This document shows, one piece after another, positions 949 through 26,117 of a DNA stretch of 64,000 bases (its first letter is position 1; the number at the start of each line of letters is the position of its first letter). The stretch spans positions 1,303-65,302 of the forward strand of contig JADFUW010000002.1 in assembly GCA_015222205.1 (NCBI GenBank), written 5' to 3'. This stretch comes from Chloroflexota bacterium. GTDB lineage: Bacteria > Chloroflexota > Dehalococcoidia > Dehalococcoidales > UBA5760. The notes under the pieces were generated by a model that worked only from the letters and a program-made list of their open reading frames with translations, was not told where the DNA came from and did no database searches. The translations under genes and the position numbers were made by a program.

Positions 949-3537
949 ATGAGAGAAGGTTTAACCCCTATCCGTCAGCAATATCTCAGGATAAAGAGGA
1001 ATTATCACGAGGCTATTGTCTTCTTCCGCCTGGGGGATTTCTACGAGACCTTTGATAAGGATGCTGAGCTTACCTCTCGGGAGCTGGATATTGTGCTGAC
1101 GTCCCGGGAGATGGGTAAGGGGCATCGGGTGCCTATGGCTGGTATTCCCTATCATGCCCTGGATAACTATCTGGCGAGGCTTATTAGTAGAGGCTATAAG
1201 GTTGCTATCTGTGAGCAGGTGACCAGGCCCGGTGAGACGAAGGGACTGGTTGAGCGTGGTGTGGTTCGAGTGGTAACGCCAGGCACGGTAATTGAGCCGG
1301 CTCTTCTTGACGGTAACGCCAATAATTATCTGGTCAGCCTCGTTTTAGGTGATGATGCGGCTGGTATAGCCTATGTTGATATAACCACCAGCGAGTTTGC
1401 TGTTACTCAACTGCCCCGGGAGCGGGCTAACGCTGAACTGGAGCGGCTTAAACCATCGGAGATTATTACGGCGGAGAGTGCTGAACTACCTGATTTAGAA
1501 TTAAAGGCTCCGCTAACCCGGCTTGAGGATTACTGCTTTGAGCTAGAGACGGCCCGCCAAACAGTGCTGGAGCATTTTGGCGTGGCTACCCTTGATGGCT
1601 ATGGCTGTAGTAACCTGCCCCTGGCGATAAGTGCTGCTGGGGCAATCATTCACTATCTTCAGGAAACACAGAAAGGGGTTCTGGGACAGCTAACCCGGCT
1701 TTCTACCTACTCCACTGGTTCATTTATGGCGCTGGATATGCAGACCCAGAGAAACCTGGAGCTATTCCAATCAAGCCGTCTGGGCACTGCTGAGGGCTCA
1801 CTACTATCGGTTATTGACCTGACCAAGACGCCTATGGGAAGTCGGCTATTAAAGAAGTGGCTGGGGCAACCCATACTTGACATAACGGAACTGACCAGGA
1901 GACAGGAGGCTATTGGCTGGTTCTTTGATAATACCCTGGCTCGCAACCAGACGGTTTCCCTGTTTAGCGAGGTGGCTGACCTGGAGCGGTTGATAAACCG
2001 GGTGAGGGGTGATGTGGTTAGTCCGCGTGAGCTAATAAGCCTGAAGCGCAGCCTTGAGGTTATTCCCAAGCTCATAGAGGTAATTACGGCTGGTAAAAGC
2101 AGTAATAGTATTAGCTGGCTCAAGGATAAGCTTAAGCCTCGTCAGGATGTAGTTGACCTGATTACTGAGGCAATAGAGGAGACACCGTCATCAGCTCTGG
2201 GGGAGGGTGGTGTGGTGAGAAAGGGTTTTTCTGAGGAACTGGATAGCCTTTGTCTGGCGTCTAGGAATGCCAAGCATTATCTGGCTAATCTGGAGCGTCA
2301 GGAGCGAGACAAAACGGGAATTAAATCCTTAAAGATAGGCTTTAACAATGTTTTTGGCTACTATATTGAGGTATCCAAAGCTAATCTCGGTCAGGTGCCG
2401 GAGCATTATATCAGAAAGCAGACACTGGTAGGGGCTGAGCGCTTCTTCACCCCGGAGCTAAAGGAGTATGAATCACTGGTTTTGAATGCCCGTGACAGGA
2501 TTAGCGAGCTTGAGTCTGAGCTGTTTCATCGGGTATGTCGCCAGATAGCTACTGCTGGCGAGCGCATCCTAGCCGTTGCCAATGCCCTGGCGAGCCTAGA
2601 TGTCTTCTCCAGCCTGGCTGAGGTGGCGGTGCGTTATGACTACACTAGGCCCAAGCTAACCACGGATAGTGAAGTGGCTATCACTCAGGGACGCCACCCG
2701 GTAGTTGAAAGGAGCTTGACCTATAAGGGCTTTGTGCCCAATGATGCTCATCTTTCCAATGGTGATGCCCAGCTTATTATCCTCACCGGGCCCAATATGT
2801 CAGGCAAGTCAACCTACTTGAGGCAGGTGGCGTTAATCGTCCTTCTGGCACAGACAGGCAGCTTTGTCCCCGCTGATGCGGCAACTATTGGCCTGGTGGA
2901 CCGTATCTTTACCCGGATTGGTGCCGGGGAAGATATTGCCGCCGGTCAGTCTACCTTTATGGTGGAGATGGTGGAGACGGCCAATATCTTAAATAACGCT
3001 ACCCCTCGCTCACTGATTATCCTGGATGAGATTGGGCGGGGCACCAGTACCTACGATGGGCTGTCCATTGCCCGGGCAGTCTGTGAGTATATCCATAATG
3101 CCTCCAGACTGGGGGCGAAAACCCTCTTTGCCACTCACTATCATGAGCTGGTTGAGCTGGCTAGTTTCCTGCCCCGGGTGAAAAACTTTAATGTGGCGGT
3201 AACCGAAGAAGGGGGTAGGGTGGTCTTCTTGTACAAGATTGTGCCGGGCGGGGTTGATAGGAGCTATGGTATCCACGTAGCGCAGCTAGCGGGCTTACCC
3301 AAATCGGTGGTGCACCGGGCACACGAGGTACTGGAGGAATTGGAGGAGGCTAGCCGAGCTACAGGGGCTAAGCCCTTACCCAAGAGGCGCGGTAAGGAGG
3401 TAGCACGGCAGCTAACATTCTTCGGGCAACAATCACCGGTGGCTGAAGAGCTAGAAAAGCTGGACATTAATTCCTTAACACCTCTGGAGGCTCTCACCAA
3501 GCTCTACGAACTGCAACAGAAGGCTAAGGAGGGGTAG
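949..3537 (+). CDS. mutS: DNA mismatch repair protein MutS
   Basis: 862-aa ORF. N-terminal mismatch-binding motif (TPIRQQYLRIKRNY..FFRLGDFYETF), Walker A GPNMSGKST and STFMVEM..DEIGRGTSTYDG are all typical MutS signatures. Confidence 0.97.
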   Translation: MREGLTPIRQQYLRIKRNYHEAIVFFRLGDFYETFDKDAELTSRELDIVLTSREMGKGHRVPMAGIPYHALDNYLARLISRGYKVAICEQVTRPGETKGLVERGVVRVVTPGTVIEPALLDGNANNYLVSLVLGDDAAGIAYVDITTSEFAVTQLPRERANAELERLKPSEIITAESAELPDLELKAPLTRLEDYCFELETARQTVLEHFGVATLDGYGCSNLPLAISAAGAIIHYLQETQKGVLGQLTRLSTYSTGSFMALDMQTQRNLELFQSSRLGTAEGSLLSVIDLTKTPMGSRLLKKWLGQPILDITELTRRQEAIGWFFDNTLARNQTVSLFSEVADLERLINRVRGDVVSPRELISLKRSLEVIPKLIEVITAGKSSNSISWLKDKLKPRQDVVDLITEAIEETPSSALGEGGVVRKGFSEELDSLCLASRNAKHYLANLERQERDKTGIKSLKIGFNNVFGYYIEVSKANLGQVPEHYIRKQTLVGAERFFTPELKEYESLVLNARDRISELESELFHRVCRQIATAGERILAVANALASLDVFSSLAEVAVRYDYTRPKLTTDSEVAITQGRHPVVERSLTYKGFVPNDAHLSNGDAQLIILTGPNMSGKSTYLRQVALIVLLAQTGSFVPADAATIGLVDRIFTRIGAGEDIAAGQSTFMVEMVETANILNNATPRSLIILDEIGRGTSTYDGLSIARAVCEYIHNASRLGAKTLFATHYHELVELASFLPRVKNFNVAVTEEGGRVVFLYKIVPGGVDRSYGIHVAQLAGLPKSVVHRAHEVLEELEEASRATGAKPLPKRRGKEVARQLTFFGQQSPVAEELEKLDINSLTPLEALTKLYELQQKAKEG

Positions 3538-3629
3538 GGGCGGGTTATTGTGCCACTAGAATTCTAGATTCTATAAAAATACATCAGCTCAGGCTGGCTA
3601 TAGAAAGGCGCAAGAAAAGGAGGTAAGAG

Positions 3630-4199
3630 GTGTCCCAGTTCAGATCAAAAGAAGTGGAGAGGGAAGCAGTACGAATGACCGCAGTCATGATGGCATCGAG
3701 TGCTAGGACGGCTCCCAAGGCTAGAGGTCTTGATGCTATAGAAACAATGATTGTCGATGGTAGTGACCTCGAACTTCTGGTAAGTGCTATGGAGGATAAG
3801 GCGAAAGAGCAACCACCCTACCTTTCTTCAATCTTTGACAGGGATGCTCGCAATGTCAGAAACTCCAGTTGTGTATTGTTAATAGGGGTTGTGGGTAACC
3901 CCAAGAAGATTGAGGAATCGTTAGACTGCGGTGCCTGCGGCTACAAAACGTGTAAGGATTTACTCAATGTGAGGAAGCGTGAGGGAAAGGACTTTAGTGG
4001 CCCTATTTGCATATTCCAAGCACTTGACTTAGGTATTGCTCTAGGTTCAGCCGTCAAACTGGCTAGCGGACTCAACGTCGACAACCGCATGATGTACACG
4101 ATTGGGGCGGCGGCGAAGAAATTGCACCTCTTGGATTCTGACATCGTTATTGGTATCCCGCTATCCGTATCCGGTAAGAATATCTATTTCGATAGGTGA
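3630..4199 (+). CDS. DUF2148-like protein (uncharacterised ferredoxin-domain family, COG4739-like)
   Basis: 189 aa, GTG start preceded by AAAGGAGG. ARTAPKARG, CGACGYKTC and GIPLSVSGKNIYFDR match my recollection of the DUF2148 family consensus. Sits between two copies of the mutS 3' end. Confidence 0.7.
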   Translation: MSQFRSKEVEREAVRMTAVMMASSARTAPKARGLDAIETMIVDGSDLELLVSAMEDKAKEQPPYLSSIFDRDARNVRNSSCVLLIGVVGNPKKIEESLDCGACGYKTCKDLLNVRKREGKDFSGPICIFQALDLGIALGSAVKLASGLNVDNRMMYTIGAAAKKLHLLDSDIVIGIPLSVSGKNIYFDR

Positions 4200-4242: not shown

Positions 4243-4362
4243 GTCTTTGGGCAAAAATCACCAATATTAGACGAGCTGGAGAAACTTGACATAAACTCAC
4301 TGACGCCCCTTGAGGCCCTCACCAAGCTCTACGAGCTGCAGAAGAAGGCAAGGGAGGGGTAG
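4243..4362 (+). pseudogene. orphan second copy of the mutS 3' end (39 codons + stop)
   Basis: Encodes VFGQKSPILDELEKLDINSLTPLEALTKLYELQKKAREG*, against FFGQQSPVAEELEKLDINSLTPLEALTKLYELQQKAKEG* at the mutS C-terminus (3418-3537). The alignment is gapless and codon-for-codon. No mutS body lies upstream of it. Confidence 0.85.
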
Positions 4363-4375
4363 GGGGGGATTATCG

Positions 4376-4798
4376 GTGACTGGAAGGAGGTGGCTAATTT
4401 TGGAGACTGGGAAATATCGCCTAGTAAAGCGAATGAGGTTGGCAGCGCGGATAATTGGTTTTGGTATGGTGGGGTTTGGTGGAACGATGCTGGTTGGTGA
4501 GGCGGTGAGTGAATATCTTCGGGAAGGCTGGGCAGTAATCACCGAGGTAACCCCGACAGACCCAGGGGTTCTACTAGTTGTGATTGGAGCAGTTGCCCTG
4601 GCGGGCTGTATTCTGTCACGGTGGCGGGAGCGACTGGCTGGCATATTACTGGTTTCCGTTGCTGCTGCACTGGGTGCCCACATTGCTACCTATGCCGGCA
4701 GAAATCATGCCCTGGTGTGGGCTATGGTGGGTCTGCCGTTTCTGGTTTCCGGGTTGCTGTTCCTTAACGCCTGGCGGCTTTCAAAGGAACTAACTTAA
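4376..4798 (+). CDS. small hypothetical integral membrane protein
   Basis: The track ORF 4310-4798 overlaps the mutS remnant. The likely start is GTG 4376 (G-rich SD-like run just upstream) or ATG 4433. It has 3-4 hydrophobic helices (IIGFGMVGFGGTMLVG, VLLVVIGAVALAGCIL, ILLVSVAAALGAHI, WAMVGLPFLVSGLLFL). Confidence 0.55.
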   Translation: MTGRRWLILETGKYRLVKRMRLAARIIGFGMVGFGGTMLVGEAVSEYLREGWAVITEVTPTDPGVLLVVIGAVALAGCILSRWRERLAGILLVSVAAALGAHIATYAGRNHALVWAMVGLPFLVSGLLFLNAWRLSKELT

Positions 4799-4870
4799 AC
4801 AGAATACGCGGTATGCGAATTATAAGAGAAGGTGGAGGGGAGGGGTGAGGATGCTGAGCCGTGTGATTCG

Positions 4871-6058
4871 TCACAATGTTGGAGACTCGAAGGAAATATT
4901 CAGGTCCCCTATTTGAATACCAGATGTGTCGCCGATATACAGTGGTAAAGGCAAGACATCTTTATGCATATTATCATATTGTTCTAGAACTTTTACTTTC
5001 AGTTCCATAAGTTCTGGGGTAAATGTAATGGCGAATTTACTATTCCTGATTAACTCGGCCTTTGAAGATCGGTCTTCTCTTTTCTTTGTCGTGTCCTCTA
5101 ATGAACTCTTTGCATGGTAGAACTGGGACCTAACACGCATATCTTCAATTTTTGCTTTGGCTTTCGGTATTTCCTCTAGCTCTTGTAGCTCTTTACTGAG
5201 CTTCTCTATCTCAATAGAGTAAGAATCAATTTCCTCCAATAGCTCATTGTATTTGGATTCTAGTCTCTTAATAATCACTTGCATATCTGTTAAACATGAC
5301 CTAAGTAATTCTCTAGTGTCGGCTAGCGAAAAGAATAGATATTCCCTCCGCTCTGGATGCCCGAAACCGGTAAACACTGTGTCATTTATGTCATCGTCTA
5401 AAAACCAATTATAGTCCTTCTTCTGATAGCCATTTATCTCTATCGAGCGTATAAACAAGCGTAGTGATATGAGTTCTTCACGTTGATATCCAGCCCTGTC
5501 TTCTTCAGTAATTTTTGCTGCGTCTTTTAGAGCCTTATCTAACTCAGCGGAAATATTTCGAGGCGTGTACTTAATAGTATCATGCGTTTGTATGTTGAAA
5601 GCTAATTCTTGTCCTTCCTTCTGCAAGGGGATTACATACTTGCCTAATGCAGTCATTAGGCCATATTCATAGTAGACATTTGGGTTAGGGATATTTACCT
5701 TCCTCCCGTTTATTAGTTCCATAGTATCATCCAGTATTACAAGGCAAAATTGCGATTCTATTATTTTCCCACATATTTTTGTACAAAATATGTCCTGTCC
5801 ATAAGCTCTCTCTTTGATTGCGATTACAGGTTCAATACCGATTTTTGTAAGTTTTTCAATAATTAGAGCGAGTATAGTTTCTACTTCTTCCTCAGATGGG
5901 CAAGCAACAAAGCATGATTTTGAGGCGCCAAGAAACTTCCCGCAAGAATGGTCTTTGCGAACAAAACATTTAGGGATCTCTCTGAATTGAGTTGATTGTT
6001 GCATTTCCGGAAAGCGTAAAAACCCTCTATTATATCTATAAAATCTGTCCATACTCAT
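4871..6058 (-). CDS. hypothetical protein: N-terminal TIR-like / nucleoside 2-deoxyribosyltransferase-like Rossmannoid domain + C-terminal coiled coil
   Basis: 395-aa ORF, AT-rich. Residues ~48-165 (SCFVACPSEEE..KIGIEPVIAI..QFCLVILDD..NPNVYYEYGLMTALGKYVIPLQKEG) follow the strand/helix pattern and the N-x-x-x-E-x-G-x(4)-GK-x-V-x-L motif of TIR-like (Cap12-type) and N-deoxyribosyltransferase-like domains as I recall them. Residues ~255-330 are a heptad-rich K/E/L coiled coil. Confidence 0.45.
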   Translation of the reverse strand: MSMDRFYRYNRGFLRFPEMQQSTQFREIPKCFVRKDHSCGKFLGASKSCFVACPSEEEVETILALIIEKLTKIGIEPVIAIKERAYGQDIFCTKICGKIIESQFCLVILDDTMELINGRKVNIPNPNVYYEYGLMTALGKYVIPLQKEGQELAFNIQTHDTIKYTPRNISAELDKALKDAAKITEEDRAGYQREELISLRLFIRSIEINGYQKKDYNWFLDDDINDTVFTGFGHPERREYLFFSLADTRELLRSCLTDMQVIIKRLESKYNELLEEIDSYSIEIEKLSKELQELEEIPKAKAKIEDMRVRSQFYHAKSSLEDTTKKREDRSSKAELIRNSKFAITFTPELMELKVKVLEQYDNMHKDVLPLPLYIGDTSGIQIGDLNISFESPTL

Positions 6059-6093
6059 AGTAATATCTCACTAATTTTAGTCCTCTTTAATTT

Positions 6094-6102
6094 ATTATAT
6101 CA
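6094..6102 (-). promoter_or_regulatory. extended -10 element (TGATATAAT) for CDS 4871-6058
   Basis: The minus strand reads TGTGATATAAT ~35 nt upstream of the ATG at 6058. A second TGTGGTATAAG motif lies further upstream, inside repeat copy B. Confidence 0.35.
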
Positions 6103-6104
6103 CA

Positions 6105-6235
6105 TGCCATTGTTTACATGCTTATACCACACACCTCACTCACCAAAGGGGTTAAAGGGGCGTTAGACCCTTAAAGAACAGCTTCCCCCTCTCCTTATCA
6201 AGGAGAGGGGGACTAAGGGGGTAAGGTTACAATGT
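6105..6235. repeat. composite palindromic intergenic repeat, copy B
   Basis: Perfect 13-bp inverted repeat TCCCCCTCTCCTT-ATC-AAGGAGAGGGGGA (6184-6212). Its tail CTAAGGGGGTAAGGTTACAAT resembles the tails of copies C and D. The left flank is shared with copy A. Confidence 0.8.
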
Positions 6236-6296
6236 TGAGGGGAACTATATCCTTATTGGTGGGTTAGGGGATATAATAGGCTGGAGGGTATTAAAT

Positions 6297-7733
6297 ATGG
6301 AGCCTGCCAAGTTTTTTGAGAGACGAACCAAGATAGTTTGTACCATCGGTCCGGCGACTGCGTCGGTGGCTATGATTGAACGGCTGATTACGGCTGGTAT
6401 GAATGTTGCCAGGTTTAATTTATCTCATGGTACTGCTGGTGAGCACGCCCGTTATATCCGAATCGTAAGGAGGTTGAGTCGGCGTCTGGGGATACCGGTG
6501 GGGGTATTGATTGATTTGCCGGGGCCCAAATACCGAATTGGAAAATTGAAGGGTAGCCGGGCTATTTTGGAAAAGGGTGCCCCGGTAATACTTACCACAA
6601 GGGCAATAGAGGGTGATGCCAATTTAGTGCCGGTGAGCCTGCCCTATCTGGCGCAGGATGTGAAGGTAGAGGATACGATGCTTCTTGCTGACGGAGTGAT
6701 AGAGCTTAAGGTGCAGGCGATAGAGGGCGATGAGGTAAACTGCCGGGTAAAGGTTGGTGGTTTGCTTACTGAGGGTTGTGGGTTGGTGGTGCCTGGAATG
6801 CGTAGTTCTGTTCCTTTTATTACTGATACCCTGCGGCAGTATATTCATTTTGCTGTTGAGCAGCAACCTGATTACCTGGCGCTCTCATTTGTGGCTGCTG
6901 ATGAGGATATCACCAGTGTTAGAGCCATCCTGCAGGAGGCTGGTGTTGATATACCCATTATTGCCAAGATAGAGCGGCGGCAGGTGGTGGATACCTTTGA
7001 TAAGGTACTCTCGGTGAGTGATGGTGTTATGGTAGCGAGGGGAGACCTCGGTGTAGATATTCCCCTGGAGAAGGTACCGCTGGTACAGAAGGAGATTATC
7101 AAGAAGTGTAACTGGGTGGGTAAGCCGGTGATTACTGCTACTGAGATGCTGGAGTCAATGGTGAAATCAATCCGTCCCACGCGGGCTGAGGCTGCTGATG
7201 TAGCTAATGCTATATTTGACGGGAGTGATGCCATTATGCTTTCATCGGAAACCTCCGTGGGTAAACATCCGGTGCGAGCAGTGACCCTGATGTCCCGTAT
7301 TGCCCGGGAGGTGGAGAGAAAATTGCCCTATCAGCAAATGTTGACGGAAAGGGGCAGGTGGCTTGAGCATAAGACAGATGAGTTAATAAGCTATAATGCC
7401 TGCTACACAGCGTATAACCTGGGGGCGGTAGCCATAGTGGCCTTTACCCAGTCCGGCAGCACGGCGGGTCGGGTATCAAAATACCGCCCTAGAGTACCCA
7501 TCTTAGCCATAACTTCTAGTAATGTTGTATCGGGCCGGTTACTCCTGCGCTGGGGGGTGTATCCCTTCCGGGTAACTGGGTTATCGTCGGTGGATGAGCT
7601 ATTTGATGCGGGGGCCAAGCTTGTTAAAGAACTTGGGTTAGCTAGAGCGGGTGACCTGATAGTAATTACCGGCGGTGTTCCTATCGGCTTAATCGGGTCG
7701 ACCAATCTGCTGAAGGTGGAAGAGATTAAATAG
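6297..7733 (+). CDS. pyk: pyruvate kinase
   Basis: 478 aa. RRTKIVCTIGPA, NVARFNLSHG and MVARGDLGV..ATEMLESM are hallmark pyruvate kinase motifs. SD GGAGGG lies upstream. Confidence 0.96.
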   Translation: MEPAKFFERRTKIVCTIGPATASVAMIERLITAGMNVARFNLSHGTAGEHARYIRIVRRLSRRLGIPVGVLIDLPGPKYRIGKLKGSRAILEKGAPVILTTRAIEGDANLVPVSLPYLAQDVKVEDTMLLADGVIELKVQAIEGDEVNCRVKVGGLLTEGCGLVVPGMRSSVPFITDTLRQYIHFAVEQQPDYLALSFVAADEDITSVRAILQEAGVDIPIIAKIERRQVVDTFDKVLSVSDGVMVARGDLGVDIPLEKVPLVQKEIIKKCNWVGKPVITATEMLESMVKSIRPTRAEAADVANAIFDGSDAIMLSSETSVGKHPVRAVTLMSRIAREVERKLPYQQMLTERGRWLEHKTDELISYNACYTAYNLGAVAIVAFTQSGSTAGRVSKYRPRVPILAITSSNVVSGRLLLRWGVYPFRVTGLSSVDELFDAGAKLVKELGLARAGDLIVITGGVPIGLIGSTNLLKVEEIK

Positions 7734-8594: not shown

Positions 8595-9158
8595 TTAAAA
8601 GTGGGGTTTGCAGAGAATCTCCTTGACCTTGAGGTCAAAGAAGTTACGGGTGTTTACCGGGCTGAGCACCAGTGCCGTATCAGCGCCGTGGCCGGTACCG
8701 GCTACGGAGATAATATCCTCGTCGGTGCGTACCAGTCCACTGTCGGCTGCCATCAGGGTTATCTCACAGGCGGCTTTTATCCCCTGACCAAAAATACGCA
8801 GCGTATCGGCGATTATCATGCCGAGGACATAGGTGTTATATTTGGTGCGCATAGCAGCACTCAGCCCGCTGAAGGCATGTGCCGTGGTTAATATTATGCC
8901 CCCCTTGTTTTCCACTATGTGCCGGTTCTCCTCCGTGAATTCTTGAATGTTGGGTCCACGCATGCCGGTAACATGGCTGACCACAATAACCCTTAGTCCT
9001 TGAAAAGCATCCATAGCCTTGACGGCAGTATCACCGGTTGTGGAGGCTACTAATATCTTCTTGATACCGAGTTCTCGTGCCCGCTCTCTGGTGATGCTGA
9101 GGGCTGTCTCGGTGGTCTCAGCGCCGGGATGCTCAAAATAGACTGTCTTTAATTCCAC
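8595..9158 (-). CDS. pyruvate kinase alpha/beta (C-terminal) domain-like protein
   Basis: 187 aa. YFEHPGAETTE..ILVASTTGDTA..FGQGIKAACEITLMAADSGL..ILCKP matches the stand-alone pyruvate-kinase C-terminal-domain-like family as I recall it. Confidence 0.7.
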   Translation of the reverse strand: MELKTVYFEHPGAETTETALSITRERARELGIKKILVASTTGDTAVKAMDAFQGLRVIVVSHVTGMRGPNIQEFTEENRHIVENKGGIILTTAHAFSGLSAAMRTKYNTYVLGMIIADTLRIFGQGIKAACEITLMAADSGLVRTDEDIISVAGTGHGADTALVLSPVNTRNFFDLKVKEILCKPHF

Positions 9159-24362: not shown

Positions 24363-25535
24363 CTAAGCTACTCGGTGTTTATCTAAAAATCGTTTTATTC
24401 GGGACAGTGCCTCTTCAATTTCAGCCATTGATGTAGCATAACAGGCACGGACATATCCGTCGCCCTGCTCTCCAAAGGCTGTGCCCGGGACCACGGCTAC
24501 CTTTTCCTCCATGATGAGCTTTTCCACAAAGTCCTCTGAGGTCATACCGGTGCTCTTTATTGACGGGAAGGCATAGAATGCTCCATGAGGTTCAAAGCAT
24601 GATAGACCAAGCTCGTTGAATCCCTTGACTATTACCCGGCGTCGGCGGTCATATTCAGCACGCATCTCCTCACCATCGGCATCGCCGGTTTTTAGTGCCT
24701 CTATGGCGGCTACCTGTCCCATTGTTGGTACGCACATAATAGTGTACTGGTGAATCTTGGTCATCGAGGCAATAATTTCTTTATTAGCTGCGGCGTAGCC
24801 AACACGCCACCCGGTCATGGCAAAATACTTGGAGAACCCGCCCAGGAAGATAGTGTTATCCTTCATCTCAGGCAGAGCCGCTATACAGGTGTGTTCCACG
24901 CCATAGACTAGCTTGGCGTAGATTTCATCAGAGATTATCAGTAGCCCATGATGCCGGGCCATCTCAGCTATCTCGGCCAGTTTATGTCTGGGCATTACGG
25001 CGCCGGTGGGGTTGGCGGGGTAGCCAATGAGAATGGCCTTAGTCTTGTCTGTGATTCGTTCTTCAATATCGGCGGCACTGAGTTCAAAGTTATTCTCCTC
25101 ATTGGTGGGTATCATAACTGGTGTGCCGCCAGCCATGATTATAGAGGGGACATAGGAGACATAGCATGGGTCGTGGGTAATGACCTCGTCGCCGGGGTCA
25201 AGGATTGCCCTCATGGCTAGGTCTAATGCTTCACTGACGCCCACTGTTATCAGAAGTTCGCCGTTAGGGTCATACTCTACATTATAATTATCATTCAAGT
25301 AGCGTGATAGCTCCTGACGCAGTTCGGGCATTCCTGAATTTGAGGTATAACTGGTTTTGCCCTTTTCTAGTGAGCGAATAGCTGCCTCAGTAAGATGCTG
25401 TGGGGTGGAGAAATCAGGCTCGCCCACCCCGAGTGAAATGGAGCCTTCCATGCCGGCTAACAGGTCAAAGAACCTTCGTATTCCTGAAGGCGATATCTGG
25501 TTTACTTTTTGTGAGGTAAGACTGCGAGTTTTCAT
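24363..25535 (-). CDS. pyridoxal-phosphate-dependent aminotransferase, class I/II (aspartate aminotransferase-like)
   Basis: 390 aa. GVGEPDF, NPTG and the SKYFAMTGWRVGY PLP-lysine motif are present. Confidence 0.9.
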   Translation of the reverse strand: MKTRSLTSQKVNQISPSGIRRFFDLLAGMEGSISLGVGEPDFSTPQHLTEAAIRSLEKGKTSYTSNSGMPELRQELSRYLNDNYNVEYDPNGELLITVGVSEALDLAMRAILDPGDEVITHDPCYVSYVPSIIMAGGTPVMIPTNEENNFELSAADIEERITDKTKAILIGYPANPTGAVMPRHKLAEIAEMARHHGLLIISDEIYAKLVYGVEHTCIAALPEMKDNTIFLGGFSKYFAMTGWRVGYAAANKEIIASMTKIHQYTIMCVPTMGQVAAIEALKTGDADGEEMRAEYDRRRRVIVKGFNELGLSCFEPHGAFYAFPSIKSTGMTSEDFVEKLIMEEKVAVVPGTAFGEQGDGYVRACYATSMAEIEEALSRIKRFLDKHRVA

Positions 25536-25609
25536 GTACTCCTCCTAGTGTTTATTGATATAAAGTTATACTCGTCATAGCCTGGGGTATTGCTGGCTGC
25601 TATCTGGGT

Positions 25610-25840
25610 TCAGTTATACCGTAGCTCAATTAGAGACCACTGCTTTTCAATTTCATTATAGCAAAGATTGAACAGCCTGTCATCCTTGGTTCTGACCTGA
25701 AAGCATCTTTTTTCCGGCTCCTGCCAGGTCTTTTCTACTTTATCAACTTCGTATTCTATGCCCTGCCATGCAAAAGACCTTGGCTCTTCGGCATAGGTAT
25801 ACCCTGAGTAGCAGCTAACTTTAAGATTATTCACCCCCAT
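25610..25840 (-). CDS. small hypothetical protein (76 aa)
   Basis: ORF with a plausible beta-rich sequence (PRSFAWQGIEYEVDKVEKTWQ..CFQVRTKDDRLFNLCY). No family confidently recognised. Coding status is uncertain. Confidence 0.4.
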   Translation of the reverse strand: MGVNNLKVSCYSGYTYAEEPRSFAWQGIEYEVDKVEKTWQEPEKRCFQVRTKDDRLFNLCYNEIEKQWSLIELRYN

Positions 25841-25963
25841 CCCCCTTTAGGGTTTTTATTGGGTAACTCTCCCCCTTGTGTTCCCCCTCCCTTGATAAGG
25901 GAGGGGGAAGTAGTTATATAAGGGAGGCGAAGCCTCCCTTCAACTCTCTTTAATAAAGAGTCT
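25841..25963. repeat. composite palindromic intergenic repeat, copy D (inverted orientation relative to A-C)
   Basis: 13-bp inverted repeat TTCCCCCTCCCTT-GAT-AAGGGAGGGGGAA (25881-25909). 8-bp hairpin AGGGAGGC-GAA-GCCTCCCT (25921-25939). 6-bp hairpin CTCTTT-AAT-AAAGAG (25946-25960). The reverse complement aligns with copy B, including the tail AAGGGGGAGAGTTACCCAAT. Confidence 0.8.
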
Positions 25964-25974
25964 GGCATTACCCC

Positions 25975-26003
25975 TTGACAAAAATAGGGTTAAATGTTAT
26001 AGT
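25975..26003 (+). promoter_or_regulatory. near-consensus sigma70-type promoter (TTGACA-17 nt-TATAGT with TG) pointing antisense into CDS 26118-26870
   Basis: TTGACA at 25975-25980, a 17-nt spacer ending TGT, and TATAGT at 25998-26003. A second CTTGACAAAA box lies at 26018-26027. No plus-strand ORF follows. Confidence 0.35.
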
Positions 26004-26117
26004 ATGGACGGTTAGGTCTTGACAAAAGGCAACTAAGCGTATATCGTACAAAAGAGAACATAAATTAAGTTATTTATAAAGTAGGCTGATGTTTATGATT
26101 TGCCAAGATTGGCATCC

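Follow-up and report, generated by a model that had tools for sequence, protein, structure and literature searches.

An AT-rich lone gene of a Dehalococcoidia genome encodes a cysteine-bearing TIR-like protein, a candidate single-gene defence effector of anaerobic bacteria and archaea

The window analysed here comprises 64,000 nucleotides of a Chloroflexota bacterium of the class Dehalococcoidia (assembly GCA_015222205.1, contig JADFUW010000002.1, positions 1,303 to 65,302). At positions 4871..6058 on its minus strand it carries a complete open reading frame (ORF) of 395 amino acids plus stop, full length when compared with a family range of 370-406 amino acids, and the question raised by the locus is what this protein does. 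Its database names point elsewhere: an identical NCBI protein is labelled 'TMF family protein', and an 81% homologue in JGI 'Skp family chaperone'. A reading made earlier from the letters alone, here called the original prediction, saw a TIR-like domain in a candidate defence gene, and this overall view is supported by the structural, profile and comparative results below, from which we infer the function. The gene is best explained, with a probability of roughly 0.55, as a self-contained conflict or defence effector that spreads by horizontal transfer, encoding a single-gene, oligomerisation-activated glycosidase of NAD+ (or of a nucleotide).

The N-terminal, cysteine-rich module (residues 25-190; 5489..5986, minus strand) belongs to the TIR / nucleoside-deoxyribosyltransferase superfamily and lies nearest to the CAP12/Pycsar TIR clade, represented in Pfam by PF10137. 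When AlphaFold was given the full-length protein and 45 close homologues, this domain was modelled poorly, with a predicted local distance difference test (pLDDT) of 35-65; a model of residues 25-190 computed with 76 diverse sequences has a pLDDT of 93.9 and a predicted template-modelling score (pTM) of 0.89. The order of elements in this model is an N-terminal beta-hairpin, bA, aA, bB, BB loop, aB, bC, a hairpin in the CC loop, aC, bD, bE and aE. Foldseek returned 65 matches to it in the PDB at E<=1e-3. The best is the TIR domain of SfSTING (Cap12; 7un8, E=8.2e-7, TMq 0.60), followed by TIR-STING fibres, DNPH1 (8rpt, E=4.7e-5, TMt 0.73), the SPARTA TIR-APAZ, nucleoside 2'-deoxyribosyltransferase (NDT; 9emx, E=6.2e-5), AbTir and SARM1. 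The model thus matches TIR domains and DNPH1/NDT enzymes, the two kinds of fold among which the original prediction had placed the protein, and the shared superfamily fold does not discriminate between the TIR and the NDT/DNPH1 families.

PF10137 (CAP12/Pycsar TIR) is the best Pfam family for the protein and PF05014 a weaker second; both had been named in the original prediction, and both stay below their cut-offs for this protein itself. Among the relatives, 44 of the 45 close ones and 73 of the 76 diverse ones match PF10137 (best E=1.7e-8), and its cut-off is passed by four distant relatives, P0239 (29.6 bits), P0247 (27.3), P0242 (25.8) and P0204 (24.8), whose modules match that of the query with E values between 1e-17 and 1e-22. 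PF05014 gives the protein 11.8-13.7 bits (E=0.07-0.26), below the gathering score of 28.8, and is matched by 18 of the 76 relatives at E<=1, with a best value of 0.0014; TIR_2 is matched by 11 of the 76. With PF10137 recovered in nearly all relatives and SfSTING as top structural match, the predicted Cap12- or NDT-type TIR-like domain is well supported. Single-sequence and profile searches of PDB sequences yielded coiled-coil noise only, besides a marginal match to BlsM (5vto, E=0.078); sequence alone does not reach the solved TIRs. The PHROG family phrog_3634, of unknown function, matches residues 124-182 (about 5513-5689) at E=2.7e-8, more strongly than PF10137 does, which would imply phage-encoded relatives.

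A further feature of the model is a beta-hairpin inserted in the CC loop between bC and aC (residues about 112-123, model strands 88-92 and 95-99; 5690..5725, minus strand). Such a hairpin has been described as distinctive of the CAP12/Pycsar-clade (SfTIR-STING-like) TIRs, which possess a catalytic glutamate and become NADases once oligomerised (bioRxiv 10.64898/2026.04.30.722052). The N-terminal module is a divergent member of this clade.

The main rival explanation is that the protein is not an NADase but a nucleotide or nucleoside N-glycosidase of the NDT, DNPH1 or MilB/BlsM type, which would hydrolyse (deoxy)nucleoside monophosphates or modified pyrimidine nucleotides. Such an enzyme could serve in salvage, or it could starve or detoxify the DNA synthesis of phages. 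DNPH1 and the nucleoside 2'-deoxyribosyltransferases come near the TIRs in the Foldseek scores, and the fold is shared at superfamily level (TM up to 0.73, target-normalised) together with a Glu-x-Gly motif of catalytic type. In a library of viral structures, which also contains NDT-like matches and a matching giant-virus CAP12/Pycsar TIR protein, the best match is a phage protein annotated as CMP/hydroxymethyl-CMP hydrolase (25% identity, E=3.7e-7). The same explanation draws on the 18 relatives matched by PF05014, on BlsM as the sole PDB sequence match that is not a coiled coil, and on the bA motif of the relatives, (V/I)F(I/V)AGP, which we take to resemble the 'YFAGP' motif of NDT. Against it, PF10137 outscores PF05014 by orders of magnitude (73 members vs 18), the top PDB matches are TIR-STING proteins, and the protein model has the CC-loop hairpin, a typical feature of CAP12-type TIRs that is lacking in the DNPH1, NDT and MilB/BlsM enzymes. 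To our knowledge, moreover, these are small housekeeping or biosynthetic proteins, compact dimers or hexamers, with neither the cysteine signature nor the fast-evolving auxiliary domains of the present family. The profiles and the hairpin make an enzyme of this type the less likely reading, and we consider it unlikely.

The predicted active site of the TIR-like module is the motif N127-V-Y-Y-E131-Y-G133 at the start of helix aC (5660..5680, minus strand). Conservation was assessed over the 76 diverse relatives and then over all 265 retrieved sequences, wherever the position was covered; invariant residues are C31, C39, F50, C92, K94, C96, C105, N127, V128, E131, G133, K140 and F154, while H37, C49 and C53 vary among relatives. 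E131 (codon at 5666-5668, minus strand) lies in the first turn of aC in the model, within the invariant N-V-x-x-E-x-G, and is the predicted catalytic residue. Besides this motif, five cysteines, overlooked in the original prediction, are invariant in every retrieved relative. C31 and C39 form a C-x7-C pair in the family-specific N-terminal beta-hairpin, outside the PF10137 profile (5942..5968, minus strand); C92 and C96, spaced one helical turn apart in a C92-x-K94-x-C96 motif, are on helix aB, and C105 is in strand bC (5744..5785, minus strand). The pattern suggests a candidate Cys4 or Cys5 metal site, of which the simplest reading would be a Cys4-type site tying the N-terminal hairpin to aB. 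A bolder reading, in which the five cysteines form a redox-active or oxygen-sensitive metal centre (a Zn-thiolate switch or an Fe-S cluster) within the TIR domain and the family, found almost exclusively in anaerobic bacteria and archaea, consists of TIR enzymes gated by a metal or by redox state, the C-terminal fold serving as a new sensor domain, seems to us quite improbable; we know of no TIR for which this regulatory principle has been described.

The C-terminal half of the protein has a different character. Residues 196-395 (4874..5473, minus strand) form, in the full-length model, an auxiliary domain with an alpha/beta core from which an antiparallel helical, coiled-coil hairpin projects (residues 249-338, with helices 249-295 and 303-338; 5045..5314, minus strand), and pLDDT is above 90 from about residue 200. 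The original prediction described this half as a long coiled coil plus a tail of about 60 residues: the helical hairpin is there, but what was taken for a plain coil and tail is a folded alpha/beta domain. When the full-length model was searched against the PDB, this domain gave no significant match, generic coiled-coil matches apart. Mean pairwise identity among relatives is 71% over residues 30-185 (minimum 56%) and 29% over residues 195-395, so that the C-terminal domain, which is without a solved homologue, is evolving much faster than the N-terminal module.

The hairpin is also the source of both database names. Sub-threshold Pfam coiled-coil matches (TMF_DNA_bd with 20.5 bits, where the cut-off is 35, and ZapB) fall entirely within residues 247-342, and the names 'TMF family protein' and 'Skp chaperone' were rejected as coiled-coil artefacts of a low-complexity helical hairpin. 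These matches and names are all that speaks for an ordinary structural coiled-coil protein; with every match confined to the hairpin and below its cut-off, and the conserved part of the protein being the TIR-like module, this explanation is effectively refuted.

The family counts at least 447 database proteins, mostly 370-400 amino acids long and alignable end to end, and 247 clusters match in a library clustered at 50% identity. The N-terminal, putatively catalytic module is unusually rigid, with 56-100% identity across phyla. At least 19 unrelated extensions, attached N- or C-terminally, accompany the module among 179 complete copies. In P0247 (649 amino acids) the cysteine-rich TIR module is joined to a region with multiple transmembrane segments and a large, extracytoplasmic-looking domain, in P0239 (449 amino acids) to an unrelated C-terminal domain of 270 residues, and in P0242, P0236 and P0153 it is itself C-terminal, after helical N-terminal regions of 230-290 residues. 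Pfam has no match for any of these partner regions.

Relatives occur in 31 of 185,579 species-representative genomes, spread over more than 15 bacterial and archaeal lineages. The bacterial hosts are Dehalococcoidia, Omnitrophota, Planctomycetota, Smithella, Desulfobacterales, Atribacterota, Clostridia, Nitrospirota, Zixibacteria, Coriobacteriia and Latescibacterota, and the archaeal hosts Methanophagales, Methanothrix, Methanoregula, Halobacteria and Thermoproteota; anaerobes make up most of these lineages. At nearly all of the about 40 loci compared, the gene has a lower GC content than its flanks, the difference being 0.04-0.28. In the present window the ORF has a GC content of 0.379 (0.359 at third codon positions), and the mean of the window is 0.485 (standard deviation 0.028, windows of 1188 nucleotides), which bears out by full computation the AT-richness that had been noticed in spot counts. 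The frame of the ORF has the second lowest GC of 1257 windows, the minimum (0.370) belonging to the overlapping window from 4951, and the gene therefore sits within the lowest-GC stretch of the 64 kb. The low-GC patch (4800..6200, GC 0.37-0.42) covers the gene and its promoter region, between flanks of 0.50-0.55. The second-lowest patch of the window, at about 25250-26050 (GC about 0.40-0.42), may be another foreign insert.

The gene stands alone, as the original prediction had it. Neighbours were compared by all-against-all clustering over 42 loci (529 neighbour ORFs) and by Pfam and PADLOC scans of the 101 nearest neighbours at 32 non-redundant loci, and no neighbour family was present in more than 2 of the 32 by any of these methods. 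Clustering revealed nothing common beyond near-duplicate contigs, except an N6/N4 methyltransferase in 3 independent contexts. A hidden partner was sought among downstream ORFs of 280-330 amino acids, and those found at three loci are mutually unrelated. Nor are homologues embedded in core operons, an arrangement that the original prediction had named as an argument against itself: even the closest relatives, Dehalococcoidia proteins of 56-64% identity, are encoded at unrelated genomic positions, none of them between mutS and pyk. The family is rare, patchy, AT-rich relative to its hosts, single-gene and modular.

Clear defence or mobilome islands make up a minority of the loci. At L010-12, in the interval from phoU to the V-ATPase operon, an N6/N4 methyltransferase is accompanied by SNase and DUF1016 nucleases; MqsA, LexA and a methyltransferase are near the family gene at L002, and TraG, DUF4062 and an SMC-like gene at L004-6. 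Integrases, reverse transcriptases, SspH, Cas1 and GmrSD are found near it at other loci. In a Dehalococcoidia metagenome-assembled genome (L013), two members stand in tandem, a full-length one of 394 amino acids (5083-6267) and one of 232 (6712-7410), and the pair adjoins an Xre-type helix-turn-helix gene and an N6/N4 DNA methyltransferase. At another Dehalococcoidia locus (L017, 9563-10953), the family gene is followed immediately by a Macro-domain gene and a SIR2 gene. Macro-domain and SIR2 proteins handle NAD+ and ADP-ribose; the arrangement was seen at this one locus only, and the adjacency may be a coincidence.

Two other explanations bear on this context. The gene might act for a mobile element as its toxin or addiction module, or serve some other selfish function not aimed at viruses, with the same chemistry and no immune role. 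The patchy distribution and AT-richness would fit, as would the integrases, TraG and toxin-antitoxin genes near some loci; but no small cognate antitoxin-like ORF is conserved alongside, the plasmid and phage collections searched contain no member of the family, and it is often a lone gene between housekeeping genes, all of which makes such a module very unlikely. Alternatively, the protein could be a signal-generating or adaptor TIR, a sensor like ThsB of Thoeris that works with an effector from another part of the genome, or it could be a scaffold with no catalytic activity. Bacterial TIRs can indeed be sensors that produce signals of the cyclic ADP-ribose or His-ADPR type, and a fast-evolving C-terminal region suits a sensor. 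Against a sensor or adaptor, the 32 non-redundant loci share no conserved partner gene, and the TIRs of the PF10137 clade described so far are NAD+-depleting effectors, while the extreme conservation of the putative active-site motif speaks against a mere scaffold; we regard this explanation as highly improbable.

Among known systems, the CAP12/Pycsar-type TIR effectors (the TIR-STING protein SfSTING, PycTIR and the derived amoeba TirC) rank first for the family both in Pfam and among solved structures, and the family resembles them in its flavodoxin-like TIR fold, the CC-loop beta-hairpin and the invariant glutamate at the start of aC. It differs from them in having no detected STING, SAVED or transmembrane ligand-sensing domain, in the extra N-terminal beta-hairpin and the five invariant cysteines, which lie outside or atop the PF10137 profile, and in the C-terminal alpha/beta and helical-hairpin domain. 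No CD-NTase or pyrimidine cyclase was encountered among the neighbours at the loci examined, as CBASS or Pycsar would have it, and no ThsA-type partner of Thoeris is conserved at the 32 non-redundant loci, the SIR2 and Macro pair being confined to L017. With no detected sensor domain, and neither cyclase nor partner among the neighbours examined, the protein does not belong to CBASS, Pycsar or Thoeris. Nor does it belong to the DUF4062 (Evangelion) proteins: PF13271 gave no match to it even at E<=10 and does not appear in the family-level Pfam lists.

In function, by analogy, the family would most resemble two kinds of system that work as one gene. The Evangelion systems are single-gene, DUF4062 TIR-like anti-phage systems that deplete NAD+ (bioRxiv 10.64898/2026.06.25.731849). 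The likeness consists in a single polypeptide with a conserved TIR-like N-terminal core and a diversified C-terminal auxiliary region (71% vs 29% identity in the present family) and in a proposed Glu-dependent NAD+ depletion leading to abortive infection, which for the present family is put forward by inference. Unlike Evangelion, the family has the cysteine signature instead of a Q/W/E or acidic-SYT motif, its hosts are uncultured anaerobes and archaea, and it is absent from the plasmid collection, whereas Evangelion is plasmid-enriched. The second is the standalone haloarchaeal TIR-SAVED effector, which defends without an operon partner and senses cyclic di-AMP via its SAVED domain (bioRxiv 10.1101/2025.06.19.660554). 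This is a precedent, in archaea, for a TIR NADase effector that stands alone; in contrast to it, no SAVED or other nucleotide-sensor domain is detectable in the family protein by Pfam or by structure search of the PDB.

The case for a defence role of the family is circumstantial, and several results weigh against the effector reading. The protein's own PF10137 score is 19.0 bits over the full length and 21.1 bits for the domain alone, and the Pfam cut-off is 24.7. In the fold search, the DNPH1/NDT enzymes score almost as high as the TIRs, and the best viral structure match bears the CMP/hydroxymethyl-CMP hydrolase annotation. As these matches nearly equal those to TIRs, NAD+ and a nucleotide are both possible substrates. 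Many loci lie among housekeeping genes and carry no defence-island signal there, as in this window and at L001 (pheST/rplT-infC-thrS); ndk and ompA are the neighbours at L007. No copy was found by tblastn on 50,697 sequenced phage genomes or in the plasmid collection. The pyk homologues led to no empty site that would demonstrate an insertion, synteny being gone at 70% identity and the one contig of 97% identity stopping 146 bp upstream of pyk. Finally, PADLOC-DB v2.0.0 holds no matching model, giving only coiled-coil noise in residues 159-367 (JetC, LmuB and mad2, E>=3e-4).

For the preferred reading, a single-gene effector, the following mechanism can be proposed. E131 at the start of aC would be the glutamate that cleaves the N-glycosidic bond of NAD+ or, less likely, of a nucleotide. 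An oligomerisation-activated NADase is expected because of the analogy with CAP12/Pycsar-type TIRs: like other members of the clade, the enzyme would show no activity in monomeric or dimeric form and would be switched on when TIR domains meet head-to-tail in a higher-order assembly. The fast-evolving C-terminal domain might hold this assembly and release it on an infection cue, and the outcome would be depletion of NAD+ followed by growth arrest or death of the infected cell, that is, abortive infection. For the five cysteines, the likeliest role is to bind a structural metal, probably Zn, which would fasten the extra hairpin to the TIR core.

TIR enzymes have a central place in the immunity of bacteria, plants and animals. 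A systematic survey of TIRs explicitly set aside standalone TIR proteins, and this class is under-explored for that reason. The chemistry and the fold of the present family are known; what is new is a cysteine-bearing sub-lineage with its own auxiliary domain, whose hosts are mainly uncultured anaerobes and archaea. The family would add a one-gene TIR effector lineage common to uncultured anaerobic bacteria and archaea, including methanogens and the Methanophagales of anaerobic methanotroph (ANME) type. If the proposed function is true, the defence-gene catalogue is extended in environmentally important lineages whose phages are poorly studied, a compact system becomes available for studying how a domain that does not sense nucleotides switches a TIR on, and the misleading database names are corrected. 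Interest would rise if the cysteine cluster turned out to be a regulatory metal or redox centre.

The immediate surroundings of the gene consist of genes on the plus strand: mutS (949-3537), a gene for a DUF2148 (ferredoxin-domain) protein (3630-4199), a gene for a membrane protein of 162 amino acids with the Pfam domain DUF7670 (4310-4798), convergent with the TIR-like gene, and the pyruvate kinase gene pyk (6297-7733). The original prediction was right in setting the 395-residue ORF on the strand opposite to its neighbours, and the translation holds the residues it quoted. It was also right about the mutS side, where both the mutS remnant and the small membrane protein are present. The remnant consists of a second copy of the last ~130 nucleotides of mutS (4244-4373 vs 3419-3548, 78% identical), so that the two copies bracket the DUF2148 gene; the duplication has the look of a scar left at the 3' end of mutS by an old insertion or replacement event, with no integrase nearby. 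The DUF7670 protein has a weak PHROG match to a 'RexB-like exclusion protein' (E=0.0035), and because its GC content is host-like, the gene is probably unrelated to the AT-rich one.

On the pyk side, a repeat copy ('copy B') had been predicted to border the gene, which did not hold: the spacer 6059-6296 is single-copy, and no second copy of it was found in the window by exact and 3-mismatch patterns, repeat finding or blastn-short. The extended -10 promoter claimed for the gene exists as a consensus match, TGATATAAT at 6094-6102 on the minus strand, 36 nucleotides upstream of the ATG, and is a candidate promoter at most. The window contains 10 extended -10 matches, with 2.7 expected, and in a stricter -35/-10 scan of the window promoter-like sites were no more numerous than in shuffles. 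Between the promoter region of the TIR-like gene and pyk lies a unique, GC-rich palindrome (6184-6212) with a 13-bp stem (TCCCCCTCTCCTT..AAGGAGAGGGGGA), which was flagged by a scan as terminator-like on the minus strand and may insulate the two divergent genes. Two genes away from the full-length pyk, at 8595-9158 on the minus strand, is a standalone protein of 187 amino acids that consists of only the PK_C domain, the C-terminal alpha/beta domain of pyruvate kinase.

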